Source: Octopus vulgaris (lineage: Eukaryota). Taken from it: DNA of 64,000 bases. This document shows positions 5,836 to 56,925 of this stretch, in pieces (the stretch's first letter is position 1; each line of letters starts with the position of its first letter). The notes below the pieces were generated by a model. The model searched no databases. It was given only the letters and a program-made list of their open reading frames with translations, and had not been told where the DNA came from. A program made the translations under genes and the position numbers. The stretch spans positions 124,372,001-124,436,000 of the forward strand of contig OX597819.1 of the NCBI GenBank assembly GCA_951406725.2, in the 5' to 3' direction.

Positions 5836-6145
5836 TTTCATTTTTGGATATGGTTTGCAAGATTCTTTACATGAGTTTGTGTGTTGAAGCATATTCTGTT
5901 GTGTCTGGGGAGAGTCATTTTCTTTTTGTGCCTTATAATATAACACACTCACCGGTAAAATTCCCACTTTTTTCTTATTTTTATTTTCCTAAAATTTTCA
6001 TTGCGTCTTGCAACCTTTTCAATAGTTTTTTGACTATTGAGTCAAAACTATTGAAAAGGTTGCAAGACGCAATGAAATTTTACCGGTGAGTATGTTATAT
6101 TATAAGGCACAAAAAGAAAACGACTCTCCCCAGACACAACAGAAT
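5836..6145. mobile_element. Short fold-back PLE-like (pseudo-LTR) insertion with hammerhead fold
   Basis: Inverted repeats 5893-5962/6076-6145 and 5991-6035/6040-6081. TSD TATTGTAATTA at 5825-5835 and 6146-6156. Confidence 0.7.
5989..6025 (-). ncRNA. Minimal type I hammerhead ribozyme-like motif, U3:A8 core variant
   Basis: Minus strand reads CTA-TTGAAAA-G-GTTGC aagac GCAAT-GAAA-ATTT-TAG: stem I CTA/TAG, core UUGAAAA...GAAA, stem II, palindromic stem III. Confidence 0.5.
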
Positions 6146-6589
6146 TATTGTAATTACTTTTCTTTCTTTATCCTTTGTAACTCAACTGGTGTGGAAGTTG
6201 TGAGGCCAGTAGACCTGGTGGATAGACTTGAACTGAAAGTTATGGAATGGAAAACAGCTTTATGTCAAATCAGGTTTTCACACTGATAAATACCAACCCC
6301 CGTTCTCTTTAGCAACTAGAAAAAAGTTCCTTTCCATATAATTCCTTCTTTGTCATAATGTTGCAACATGTTACATGCCTCATAGCCCAGCAGCCCTGAA
6401 AAATACTTACAATTTTCTTGGAACAACTGTGCAGCCAGTTAAAGAGATTTGTGTTCTTATCCCAGGGGATTAGGAATAAAATTAATCTTAACAGGTTTTA
6501 AATTACAAAATGAAAATATTAGTAATTTATTAATATTGCTTTTTCTTCATAATGTTTTCTTCTTAGCTTTTTCATTCTTCCTTGCATTA

Positions 6590-7084
6590 TCGAGTGTGAT
6601 CGTTACCAGCGGCTAACCGACCTCCGTGCCAGTGGCACATAAAAGGGCACCATTCGAGCGTGATTGTTACCAGCGTCGCCTTACTGGCACTTGTGCCTGT
6701 GCTAGTAGGGCACCAAGAGCACCATCCGAGCGTGATCGTTGCCAGAGCAACCAACTGGCTTCTGTACCAGTGGCATGTAAAAGGGCACCATTCAAGCGTG
6801 ATCGTTACCAACGTCGCCTTACTGGCACCTGTGCCGGTGGCACGTGTAAAAGGATTCGAGTGAGGTCGTTGCCAGTATTGCCTGAATGGCCCCTGTGGTG
6901 GTGGCACGTAAAAAGCACCCACTACACTCTCGGAGTGGTTGGCATTAGGAAGGGCATCCAGCTGTAGAACTCTGCCAAATCAAGACTGGAGCTTGGTGCA
7001 GCCATCTGGTTCGCCAGCCCTCAGTCAAAATCGTCCAACCCATGCTAGCATGGAAAGCGGATGTTAAACGATGATGATGATGAT
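6590..7084 (+). mobile_element. RTE 3' UTR with tandem modules + tail (family A)
   Basis: Repeated GTGCCGGTGGCAC-TAAAA-GCACC units, conserved tail, (GAT)n. Confidence 0.85.
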
Positions 7085-7560
7085 CTTTACATTGTTTCAG
7101 CTAGAGGCTTCTATAATGCTCACTATGACAGATTAACAGTTCGACATTTCAGTTGGATCTCATCAATTCAGAACAGTAATCATCTTGCGAGAGACAGATA
7201 GGTCAAGACAACATATCTGTTGGACAGATATTTCATGTTCTTGTCCTGTGTATTGGACTTTCTTGGGATAATTTTATGAAGAAATGAAAATAAAATTAAA
7301 TGCCTCAAGGCAAATATTTACAGAGAGAGAGTAGTTATGAATAGTCATTATATTGTTGGTATTTATTTTATGAGCGTGAAAAATGAATCGAAATGGAAAC
7401 CAAGTAACGGCGGCAGCAGTCGTGGAACAGCATGCGATTGCTGAAGCTCAGAAAATGTTGGGACGAAACTAATATTTCTGAAAACTTGCTGTCCTTGGCT
7501 GAAATAATTTGTCTCCTGCTCACAATTTATACACTAACTGGCACTATGACCCAGCAACGC

Positions 7561-7746
7561 CAGCACGTAAAAAGCACCCACTACACTCACGGAGTGGTTG
7601 GCATTAGGAAGGGCATCCAGCTGTAGAAACACTGCCAGATCAGACTGGAGCCTGGTGCAGCCTTCTGGCTTCCCAGACCCCAGTCGAACCGTCCAGCCCA
7701 TGCTAGCACAGAGAACGGATGTTAAACGATGATGATGATGATGATG
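7561..7746 (+). mobile_element. RTE 3' tail (family A)
   Basis: Conserved tail and (GAT)n. Confidence 0.85.
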
Positions 7747-8117
7747 TTGTGCACTGAGATATTCATCACTATCTTTTGTAAAATCAGTGAATTTTAGTAG
7801 TCAGTTGAATTGATGCAGTGCTTACTGTTGACCCAAGGGAGATGAAAGGAATAGCTGAACTTGGGGTTTTAACTCAGAATGTAAAATAAGATAAAAAACT
7901 AAATGTAATATATTCAGTTTGATACAATACTAATATGACTACCTCCACCAAATAAAATAGCTTCAACTGGGAATTGAAACCATTTTGCATGACCAATGGC
8001 AACACCAGAGTTCCAAGTATTGAAGAGAATTCAAAAAAGAAAGGTCATTCACAGGTAACTGTCTCTGTTAATCTGGTAATCTAGTACTTTAACTTCATGA
8101 TGCATCACCTGATGGGA

Positions 8118-8604
8118 AGGCGGTGAGCTGGCAGAAATGTCAGCATGCCGGGCGAAATGCTTAGCAGTATTTCGTCTGCCGTTATGTTCTGAGTTCAAAT
8201 TCCGCCGAGGTCGACTTTGCCTTTCATCCTTTCGGGGTCGAGAAATTAAGTACCAGTTACGCACTGGGGTCGCATTCTGAGTTCAAATTCCACCGAGGTC
8301 TACTTTGCCTTTCATCCTTTCGGGGTCGAGAAATTAAGTACCAGTTACGCACTGGGGTCGCATTTTGAGTTCAAATTCCGCCGAGGTCGACTTTGCCTTT
8401 CATCCTTTCGGGGTTGAGAAATTAAGTACCAGTTACGCACTGGGGTCGCATTCTGAGTTCAAATTCCGCCGAGGTCTACTTTGCCTTTCATCCTTTCGGG
8501 GTTGAGAAATTAAGTACCAGTTACGCACTGGGGTCGATGTAATCGACTTAATCCGTTTGTTTGTCCTCTCTGTGTTTAGCCCCCTTGTGGGTAATAAAGA
8601 AACA
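8118..8604 (+). mobile_element. SINE family B with an internal 88-bp unit present four times
   Basis: Units start at 8187, 8275, 8363 and 8451; normal head and tail. Confidence 0.85.
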
Positions 8605-54295: not shown

Positions 54296-54315
54296 ATGTC
54301 GTATATACCATCAGC

Positions 54316-55075
54316 CTGTCGTATATATGTATATATATATATAAGTGTGTGTATATATGTTTGTGTGTCTGTGTTTGACCCCCTAGCATTGCTTGACAAC
54401 CGATGCTGGTGTGTTTACGTCCCCGTCACTTAGCGGTTCGGCAAAAGAAACCGATAGAATAAGTACTGGGCTTACAAAGAATAAGTTCCATGGTCGATTT
54501 GCTTGACTAAAAGGCGGTGCTCCAGCATGGCCGCAGTCAAAATGACTGAAACAAGTAAAAGATAAAAGATAAAAGATATAATAGTATCAATTAACCTGAC
54601 TACATTTTCCTCCAGAAAACATTAGCCTTGTATTACAACAAAAGGAACGAATATTTATTGAAGATAAATTCTGTTGTACTGTTGCTAGTGGAGACATTTC
54701 ATTGTTCTCTTATTAATAGAATGGTAATGAAATTTAGTTGACATTTTTATGCCTTTTTTACAACACAACACAGGTGTTTGCCTGTATTTACTTACAAATT
54801 CTAGACAAGATTTTGATGTTTGTTAATAGATTTGTATTTGTTTCTTATCTAAAGAATGTAAGGCATTTGATGACCAACACCTAATTCATCAATTCATATC
54901 TACTGTATAGGTATAGGCATGGGTGTGTGGTTAAGAAGTTTGCTTTTGAACCATGTGTTTTTGGGTTCAGTCCCACTACATGACACCTTGGACAAGTGTC
55001 TTCTATAGGTCTGGATTGACTAAAACCTTTGAGTGAATTTTGTAGATGGAAACTGAAAGCAACCTATCATATATA
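54316..55075 (+). mobile_element. SINE-C 3' half (54316-54576) and a degenerate SINE-C 5' half (54915-55075)
   Basis: Similarity to 37733-38125. Confidence 0.75.
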
Positions 55076-55875
55076 TATATATATATATATATATATATAT
55101 ATATACAATTATGTAATCTAAATATGACAAATAAATACCTCAACACAGCTTTAATGTTGAAGTATTTCTTTGTCTTATTATTTGGATTATATTTTACTCT
55201 TTGCTAAACCCACACAATTGTTTTTGACATCATGAAACAAGGATTTTCTACACCTGAAGAATTTTGGTATTAGTCTGGAATCTGACAGAATTGATAGCCC
55301 AGAACGTCAGTTCAGTGCTTCATTGGAAAATACCCTCTCTATATGCCCTGTATATATATATATATATATATATATATATATATATATAGGTTATAAGAGG
55401 TAATGGTGTCATTAAGACCCAAAGGTGTCAGGTAATGTAAGTAAGTATCTCATTTATTTCCTTATCGTATTTAATGCTGATGACGAGAAAATTCTAAATG
55501 AATTAACTCAGAAATTGGGACTGATCCGATAATAACGAACTCTTTTTAGAAATTTCTATCGGCTTGCTTTCGAGACACGTGCTTATAGTGATAAATTATA
55601 TGGTTATTGACGAATAAGTTTATATTTCGGCATATTTGGCATTGGATTTTTTTCTTTTACCCTTGTTTATAAGTTGTTTATAAAATTTAACCTTTAAAGG
55701 TATTTTTTAATATGCTGGCCATTGATAAAATGTTTTCGAAAATTTTTATCCTATATTAGATATATATATATATGTATGTGTACACACACACAAAGATAAA
55801 TTGATAGATACAACTGAGTGGGCAAACAAAAATATGAGACACTGCCTAGTGGGTTTAAAAAAATTTTTATAAGCC

Positions 55876-56390
55876 TTAACGTCCACTTTCCATGCTAGCA
55901 TGGGTTGGACGGTTTGACTGAGGGCTGGCGAGCCAGATGGCTGCACCAGGCTTCAATCTTGATCTGGCAGAGTTTCTACAGCTGGATGCCCTTCCTAACG
56001 CCAACTACTCCAAGAGTGTAGTGGGTGCTTTTACGTGCCAGTCAGGTGGCACTGGCAACGACCTCACTTGAATTTTTTTACACATGCCAGTGGCGCAGGT
56101 GTCAGTAAGGCGATGCTGGTAACGATCACGCTAGGATGATGTCTTTTACATGCCACCGGCACGGAGGCCAGATAGCCGCTCTGGCAATGATCACGCTCAG
56201 ATGGTGCTCTTAATACCCTACTCGCACGGGGCACAAGTGCCAGTAGTGTGACGCTGGTAACGCTCACGCTCGAATGGTGCCTTTTAAGTGCCACTGGCAC
56301 GGAAGCCAGTTAGCCGCTCTGTCAATGATCACTCGTATAGAGCTCTTTGCACTCCGCTAGCACGGACGCCAGTCGTCGAATTTGATTTTA
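55876..56390 (-). mobile_element. RTE 3' UTR/tail (family A)
   Basis: Reverse-complement modules and tail. Confidence 0.8.
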
Positions 56391-56690
56391 AAATTAATTA
56401 AAACAAAGGCAGTATATTTCAGTTGAAGAGTTAATCAGATTTAACATCAAACATTCTGCTTTGACCAATCTTATTCCTACAGATATTAACTTACAGATGT
56501 TTAGATTGTGTATCAGCTGTTTGGAAGAGTTTCTAAAAGTCGATGGACACAGCCACTTCTCTTCTTATTAATTTATTAAAAAATAATTTGGTTATAGAAA
56601 CGTCATAGAATTATTTAATTGTAATTTGTGTGTACATCTGTTTGAGAATGTTTCTTTTAGGCAACTCTTACTCCATATTTTTATTGAAAA

Positions 56691-56925
56691 TGTTTATATA
56701 TTTGTTTTGCAAGATTTTTGATATGAAATCGTGTGCTGAAACAGATGTTGTTGTATTTAGGAATGGTCATTTTGCCAGTTTAGTGTGACGAAAGAACTCT
56801 GGCCGAAATAAGATTAAGATTAATGTAAAAAATAAATAACACTGAAGCAAAGTAACACCAAATATATAGTGCGTGTGTTTTTATTGGCTAAACTGGCAAA
56901 ATGGCCATTCCTAAATACAACAATA
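56691..56925. mobile_element. Short fold-back insertion related to 5836-6145
   Basis: Inverted repeat 56745-56783/56888-56926; TSD TTTATTGAAAA at 56680-56690 and 56926-56936; shares TTTGCAAGATT..ATGA..GTGTG.TGAA with 5853-5890. Confidence 0.65.

Follow-up and report, generated by a model that had tools for sequence, protein, structure and literature searches.

Minimal hammerhead ribozymes of Penelope-like elements (PLEs) have been described in metazoans, among them about 1,300 Schistosoma motifs (Cercyon) with a U3-A8 core pair; the same survey reports an extra nucleotide that lies after position 9 and before 10.1, and pairs of motifs on opposite strands, 100-700 bp apart, mostly in truncated PLEs (PMC4209133). 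Natural U3-A8 is also reported, and a U4C viroid variant mentioned, in PMC3088659, and G3-C8 is known as an engineered variant (PMC11167929; PMC3884650). In Adineta Pen2a, the pseudo-long terminal repeat (pLTR) and tail encode the first codons of the open reading frame (ORF) (PMC3846280). For Poseidon_Ac of the green anole, two measured internal start sites of reverse transcriptase (RT) bracket the tail, the enzyme is a predicted dimer that cuts both strands at AT-rich targets, uncut RNA is the substrate, cleavage is dispensable, and an engineered C3G/G8C exchange partly rescues cleavage (PMC11167929). Further background on dimer-acting hammerheads and retrozymes is found in PMC6765202 and bioRxiv 10.64898/2026.07.22.740005. 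Here we describe four fold-back insertions (E1 to E4) in a 64,000-nt stretch of the Octopus vulgaris genome (GCA_951406725.2, contig OX597819.1, positions 124,372,001-124,436,000 of the forward strand; hereafter the window). As the original prediction had supposed, their origin is of Penelope type: all four units are termini of coding PLEs with an RT and GIY-YIG ORF. They are ordinary Penelope end stubs and no new class, each a head-to-head pair of pLTR copies, probably made from capped, uncut RNA that was copied at each of the two cut DNA ends.

Layout of the four insertions and their hammerhead motifs

The coordinates and the common architecture claimed for the four insertions were borne out. 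Each holds an inverted pair of arms, one of which exceeds the other by 55-65 nt, and the target-site duplications (TSDs) of about 11 bp claimed for three of them measured 11 or 12 bp. The features are as follows.

5836-6144: E1 insertion; 12-bp TSD at 5824-5835/6145-6156
5836-6029, minus strand: E1 tail-bearing arm, a putative Nematis-like PLE pLTR; ATG at 5918 and 26 codons of the ORF start; tail ~5836-5892
6039-6144, plus strand: E1 inverted tailless arm; a 35-nt deletion takes out the 3' strand of stem I
5989-6025, minus strand: E1 minimal hammerhead motif; U3-A8 core 6022-6016, extra G 6015, stem II 6014-6000, stem I of 3 bp
43252-43528: E2 insertion; 11-bp TSD at 43241-43251/43529-43539
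43254-43382, minus strand: E2 tailless arm; holds the G3-C8 hammerhead motif, sited in the fold-back loop
43382-43337, minus strand: E2 hammerhead motif; core 43377-43371, extra G 43370
43382-43528, plus strand: E2 tail-bearing arm; ATG at 43440 and 30 codons; tail 43472-43528
46496-46726: E3 insertion; inside (TA)n, hence TSD unreadable
46496-46642, minus strand: E3 tail-bearing arm, a putative Hydra-clade-like PLE pLTR; second core copy 46629-46623; tail ~46496-46560
46650-46726, plus strand: E3 inverted tailless arm; hammerhead-like motif 46659-46696
56691-56925: E4 insertion; 11-bp TSD at 56680-56690/56926-56936
56691-56783, minus strand: E4 short tail-bearing arm; ATG at 56770 and 26 codons; tail ~56691-56744
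56782-56925, plus strand: E4 tailless arm; 5'-truncated within stem II

On the ribozyme strand, it is invariably the extension that forms the 3' end. Those of E1, E2, and E4 are mutually similar and that of E3 is unrelated. Among the window fold-backs, the long duplex leaves out only the E2 core, and the tail-bearing arm of E2 begins within stem III, close to the predicted cleavage site. E1 was inserted just behind one copy (5627-5812) of an abundant repeat that resembles a short interspersed element (SINE), ends in (GAT)n and occurs at about 20 other window sites.

The three hammerhead cores claimed earlier are present, namely TTGAAAA plus G in E1 (6022-6015, minus strand), GTGAACA plus G in E2 (43377-43370, minus strand), and CCGACGA in E3 (46663-46669, plus strand). 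The extra G said to be common to the G:C and U:A cores was found at 43370 and 6015, and the E4 family carries it too. The features of a minimal type I hammerhead (3-8 pair, GAAA, UH, and three helices) are clear in E2, and E1 has the short stem I listed above. The C3-G8 core of E3 departs from the consensus at U4, which is C, and at 10.1-11.1, which is A-U, and its stem II has 3 bp. The claimed covariation among C:G, G:C, and U:A cores held for the 3-8 pair itself but not for its C:G example at 46663, which belongs to a family unrelated to E1 and E2. The true C:G relative of these two is the family of E4, which had been taken to have no ribozyme; the window copy lost the family's C3-G8 core and extra G through 5' truncation.

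The motifs had been expected to escape standard searches, and Rfam at E<=5 returned 62 matches of which none was a hammerhead; the microRNA matches were rejected, as they scored below gathering and reflect hairpins and simple repeats. With the 3-8 pair free to covary, a relaxed descriptor found four window sites, the three cores and 36566, versus 1.08 expected in shuffles, and four were reached in 1/60 shuffles. When single elements were shuffled, the descriptor matched in 18, 13, and 4 of 2000 each (0.2-0.9%). Only E2 and 36566 passed a stricter descriptor in the window. The match at 36566-36600 is isolated, has a C3-G8 core, lies beside a decayed palindrome (36234-36516), and is probably due to chance. 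Judged from their sequence, the hammerhead motifs are predicted self-cleaving RNA. Given that G3-C8 occurs in hundreds of copies, descriptors restricted to C3-G8 or U3-A8 undercount such motifs.

Coding partners of the four families

First-look genome candidates, which are not copy numbers, amounted to 2191 (E1), 751 (E2), 1270 (E3), and 398 (E4); for each family 40 candidates were scored and 30 fetched. Coding PLEs with the same pLTR were found for all four, elsewhere in the same genome, so that the families cannot be called non-coding as originally predicted. The E1 partner was searched for with the GIY-YIG segment upstream of one E1 copy (150 scored matches), and in 21/29 non-seed loci the endonuclease segment was followed in sense by the E1 unit, 386-1085 nt downstream. 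One E1 locus holds an RT-endonuclease frame of 665 aa, and the tail continues into the ORF at L155 and L334. The E4 unit is linked to a 717-aa RT frame, 63% identical to that of E1 (2/30 loci). A 25-nt pattern upstream of E2 had 490 exact matches; endonuclease matches stood upstream in sense at least at 4 of 30 loci with this pattern, and in 3/3 regions picked for this purpose the upstream RT-endonuclease was 46-56% identical to the E1 and E4 proteins. For E3, endonuclease or RT was found upstream in 4/25 loci, two of them duplicates, and the partner (L184) is a distinct element with a DKT motif and a CxCX5C linker. Pfam matches were weak and below the cut-off (RVT_1, E=0.008; GIY_YIG_2, E=0.013), and the motifs were read from the sequence. 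Among named proteins, the best homologue of the E1 partner bears the label Octopus vulgaris. In E1, E2, and E4, the extension and the arm end encode a common peptide of 26-30 residues from ATG; the overlap of pLTR and tail with the ORF start is direct in E1 and seen via the homologous peptide in E2 and E4. An ATG-led frame was not seen in the E3 tail.

The partners of E1, E2, and E4 appear to be Nematis-like, that of E3 Hydra-clade-like, and none is a Naiad. The former share with Nematis (PMC8557442, Fig. S2) a C-terminal GIY-YIG, a CCHH motif, and a short CX4CxxC linker, which falls within the Nematis definition CX2-5CxxC; this likeness was judged by eye against the figure rows. In place of the DKG motif, the E1 ORF reads DKSG. 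The E3 partner resembles the Hydra clade in its DKT, its CxCX5C, and its (TA)n targeting (PMC8557442), and 13/17 E3 fold-backs sit in TA targets; the E3 pLTR carries no canonical hammerhead (C4 in most of 64 copies, a 3-bp stem II closed by A-U). Naiads carry an N-terminal GIY-YIG endonuclease (PMC8557442), whereas in all four partners it lies C-terminal to RT, which removes the proposed Naiad link.

A long-linker (Neptune-type) ORF in frame with the E2 tail at L187 was rejected as the ORF of E2 because its identity to the clade is 21%, it terminates in a different pLTR, and the E2 partner was found elsewhere. Seven further long-frame E2 matches were flank read-through. About 3 kb past the window end (L353:2563-4253) lies a same-clade coding PLE whose protein shares 56% identity with that of E1; behind it comes an E1-like unit at 77%. 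A separate PLE pLTR family, its core frequently with U at position 6 and an extra A, occurs at L184, L185, L187:4985-5185, and other loci, with the long-linker ORF in L187. Stubs of one family are often located within a different PLE family's terminus or next to it (L133, L149, L164, L171, and L053).

These partners bear on the reading in which the insertions form independent families that are non-coding, bear ribozymes, resemble retrozymes or SINEs, and owe their mobility to Penelope or Naiad enzymes acting in trans. Such a reading would fit the excess of short copies over long ones, with their common 5' end, the tandem E2 runs at L190 and L192, and the existence of non-autonomous PLE derivatives (PMC8557442; bioRxiv 10.64898/2026.07.22.740005). 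However, every unit is a coding-element terminus, arm lengths and junctions vary so that there is no fixed fold-back unit, the letters at -2 and -3 are heterogeneous, the L192 repeats hold TA-rich, flank-like DNA between units, and the C-terminal endonuclease speaks against Naiads. We therefore regard trans-mobilised families as quite improbable, although some solo copies may have spread in trans later. Animal non-LTR retrozymes likewise have a type I hammerhead and derive from PLE pLTRs (bioRxiv 10.64898/2026.07.22.740005), but they are tandem non-coding units with a complete ribozyme each, whereas the window elements are inverted pairs of coding-element ends that finish in ORF codons or tail. 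Tandem E2 runs were seen only at two loci, an array of nine or ten tailless units with TA-rich spacers and one final tail (L192:1049-2631) and an array of four tailed units (L190:1615-2433). Ten 37-nt repeats of the E1 5' end were seen at G000:C2:15437299-15437658.

One tail per fold-back, and one parent RNA or two

Architecture was surveyed in 176 loci; of those of E1 and E2, one half was chosen through 5' patterns without selection for tails, and the remaining loci are best matches and hence biased. Every family showed two fixed 3' ends, 55-65 nt apart. Among 101 fold-backs, 95 had one tail, six had none, and none had two, a pattern for which we found no counterpart in the literature searched. 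Arm lengths and junctions differed from copy to copy. The TSD mode was 12 bp in E1 and E2 outside TA repeats, with a spread of shorter calls.

The arms of E1 and E2 were compared at non-CpG subfamily-diagnostic sites; E3, whose site 84 lies at the arm end, and E4, for which counts were few, were kept out of this argument. Arms disagreed in 11/52 comparisons in E1 and in 13/85 in E2, with a background mismatch of 5.2% and 3.3%, respectively, while random pairing would give 24.7 and 38.0 disagreements. At least six pairs show a switch that spans two linked sites or more (L003, L005, L010, L053, L225, and L250). Some arm pairs thus stem from different parents, and most are compatible with a single one.

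An inverted arm could also be obtained if a single cDNA folded back, via stem I or on an antisense template, and was copied into it, as in the self-priming proposed in PMC3846280. In L033, L034, and L036 the junctions lie exactly on the two stem I strands, and most arm pairs are concordant at diagnostic sites, both as expected from fold-back. Against this, the window tails of E2 and E4 are on the arm without the ribozyme core, and copying a tailless arm cannot create a tail; the linked switches are hard to obtain from one cDNA; rare alleles were found in both arms 22 times versus 440 in one arm (the latter mostly being probably later mutations); and the extra G at the sense 5' end, described below, indicates a sense template. 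We thus consider fold-back of a single cDNA very improbable.

The 5' end and the extra G

In E1 and E2, the starts of short copies concentrate at a single 5' position, which lies 13 and 23 nt, respectively, upstream of the core and in long copies is preceded by C. Counted by eye, for exact matches with a letter other than the long-copy C, an extra G stood there in 77 of the first 100 of 432 exact matches listed for E2 (flank background 22%) and in 64 of the first 100 of 843 listed for E1 (55/91 with one tandem array counted once). Further upstream the copies share little: position -2 was G in 2/30 (E2) and 0/30 (E1) loci, and the letters at -2 and -3 were heterogeneous. Where the letter disagreed with the partner arm or target it was G in 9/9 cases, and all 17 A/T cases with a partner arm are explained by the partner. 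Reverse transcriptases can copy the mRNA cap as G, and the E2 5' site is one that we take to be initiator- and TATA-like in look.

No pile-up was seen in E1 at the cleavage site (3 of ~90 starts in the bin), and E2 showed a slight rise there (12 of ~97 starts within 10 nt), which may reflect stem microhomology. More than 1,200 exact matches start upstream of the predicted cut. Since these copies run through the ribozyme, their RNA templates were likely uncut, consistent with what is described for the anole PLE (PMC11167929). In the literature searched we found neither a cap G in PLEs nor a match for a sharp 5' end that carries a non-templated G and lies just upstream of a ribozyme.

Core states and covariation of the 3-8 pair

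The E1 core was U3-A8 in 58/62 copies (50/59 loci), the E2 core G3-C8 in 45/51 copies (46/60 loci), and the E3 core C3-G8 in 59/64 copies, mostly with C4. All 22 E4 cores were C3-G8, 21 of them with the extra G. Two older sister groups, E5 and E6, were also found. E6 is mostly C3-G8 (10/15 true 5' halves) and has its stem I in common with E2; compared with this C3-G8 relative, the 7-nt core of E2 differs only at positions 3 and 8, both by transversions. E5, which is related to E1, had U-A in five, C·A in five, and U·G in three of the 13 loci (of 23) that were readable, three of these cores being read by eye. Decay alone would seldom give eight mismatches in 13 (P=0.001 if 20% per copy is assumed), which suggests that mismatched masters were amplified.

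The motif lies at the same place and on the same strand in five related families, and their 48-copy alignment (A1, which omits one E6 row, L296 minus, as a false match) has no gaps in the core. In agreement with the covariation proposed for the 3-8 pair, 7/12 pairs, 3-8 among them, change on both sides, and compensatory changes also occur in stems I, II, and III. The 3-8 states were UA in 16 copies, CG in 15, GC in 8, UG in 2, and other in 7. Paired cells reached 91% versus 31-51% in slid controls; measures of pair type did not exceed shuffles (181 and 455 of 500). Covariation becomes cleaner when E3 is exchanged for E4, E5, and E6 in the comparison. The direction of change at 3-8 is inferred, and a tail-region tree was left unused for its mis-cut E6 rows and weak support. 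In folding of the whole pLTR, stems I and II of E2 had P>=0.86; E4 was supported locally, and for E1 stem II was obtained only locally.

Alternatively, the hammerhead-like cores could be chance or dead remnants and the 3-8 pattern neutral drift. The A9C and U4C variants were amplified, C·A (5/13) and U·G (3/13) are frequent among readable cores of the older E1 relatives, and the many copies starting upstream of the predicted cut point to templates that were likely uncut; all of this would be expected under drift. Yet drift does not readily explain why five related families hold the motif at one position and on one strand, with compensatory changes in stems I-III and at 3-8, or why the E2 and E6 cores differ only at 3 and 8 and by transversions, nor does it explain the predicted folding of E2, and we consider it unlikely.

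An abundant natural G3-C8 core and C·A and U·G intermediates, here within one octopus clade, are unmatched in the portions of PMC4209133 considered here and in the rest of the literature searched, where no natural G3-C8 hammerhead was found; the supplements of PMC4209133 and PMC3088659 and Lünse 2017 lie outside that search, and absence of natural G3-C8 from print is not established.

Proposed mechanism and comparison with known systems

Two separate primings on sense, capped RNA are favoured by the one-tail rule of the fold-backs, by the extra G, and by arms of mixed parentage. In the mechanism that we propose, the element's enzyme would make cuts in the two DNA strands some 12 bp from each other, and the start of a capped, uncut RNA would be copied once from each cut end. 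The two 3' ends would correspond to two internal RT start sites as in the anole PLE, one per DNA end, possibly used by an enzyme dimer, and the 5' pile-up would mark the transcription start, the extra G being the cap copied by RT. The two cDNAs, of the same polarity, could then join by microhomology, which the ribozyme stems can supply. Starting from C-G, the 3-8 pair would have drifted to U-A and to G-C, with weak selection for a ribozyme that is slow, assisted by a dimer or protein, and dispensable for insertion. While head-to-head copying of capped, uncut RNA at each cut end is the probable origin of the insertions, its most detailed form falls somewhat short of that and is held tentatively: twin priming by a dimer on capped, uncleaved sense RNAs, sometimes from two parents, with the cap read as G, together with a passage from C-G to U-A via transposing mismatches and to an active G3-C8.

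Several observations weigh against this scheme. An intact pLTR-ORF-pLTR copy was not found in the regions examined, both junctions being seen in separate loci. Arms are mostly concordant (E1 41/52, E2 72/85; random draws would give ~45% discordance), and a single RNA or self-copying may explain many arm pairs. In 22/39 G cases the letter could have come from the partner arm or target, short E3 copies begin with T runs and without a clear G, and E4 has no 5' pile-up at the ribozyme. The E2 5' end is similar to a 3' splice site; that its G arose by splicing was judged unlikely, as letters further upstream are not common to the copies. The readings as transcription start and cap are inferred from DNA junctions. 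As for the ribozyme, A9 is C in 18/22 E4 cores and U4 is C in most E3 cores, E1 has a stem I of 3 bp with stems I and II unpredicted in the whole pLTR, and stem II of E3 has P ~0.15. Finally, the rows used for covariation were pre-selected by patterns that need approximate stems, and five families provide few independent covariation events.

On the one hand, much of what the insertions display is already published: their layout and opposite-strand pairs, U3-A8, and the extra nucleotide (PMC4209133; PMC3846280). Like Adineta Pen2a (PMC3846280; PMC8557442, Fig. 2), they combine an inverted 5'-truncated copy with a tail at one end; with PLEs that encode an endonuclease (PMC3846280; PMC8557442) they share the ORF-coding pLTR and tail, the TA preference, and the Inr-like start, the duplications there being 8-10 bp; and with the metazoan PLE hammerheads of PMC4209133 they share a short stem I, a palindromic or tiny stem III, the extra nucleotide, and U3-A8. 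The two fixed 3' ends that define the tail in octopus stubs recall the two RT start sites of Poseidon_Ac (PMC11167929). On the other hand, octopus arms are often both pLTR-sized, with a tail of 55-65 nt and TSDs that are most often 12 bp long, and a single 5' position, marked by an extra G, is where hundreds of copies end, unlike what is described for Pen2a (PMC3846280). Unlike Poseidon_Ac, the octopus elements belong to a different PLE clade, and G3-C8 is natural here and engineered there; inverted insertions and a cap G are outside what the portions of PMC11167929 considered here address. Useful additions that can be put to the test are the G3-C8 family, the intermediates with mismatches, the one-tail rule, and the extra G. 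For the head-to-head insertions of Penelope elements, self-priming on an antisense template was proposed earlier (PMC3846280), and the two primings favoured here lend themselves to testing in the in vitro system already in use. For annotation, such stubs belong with their coding PLE families and should not be entered as new SINEs, miniature inverted-repeat transposable elements (MITEs), or microRNA precursors.

Other repeats in the window

A SINE-like family of ~237 nt, with 86-92% identity, occurs at 1529-1765, 8119-8609, 22182-22418, 25520-25645, 36662-36899, 57356-57591, and 63018-63253, the copy at 8119 having an internal tandem repeat. A MITE-like family with terminal inverted repeats and an internal telomere-like CCCTAA run is found at 29497-29905, 47892-48663 (with 262-nt arms), 48888-49294, and 52372-52609. 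A GC-rich MITE-like element at 26680-26907 has 46-nt terminal inverted repeats and a flanking duplication, and a partial relative of it lies at 44905-45028.

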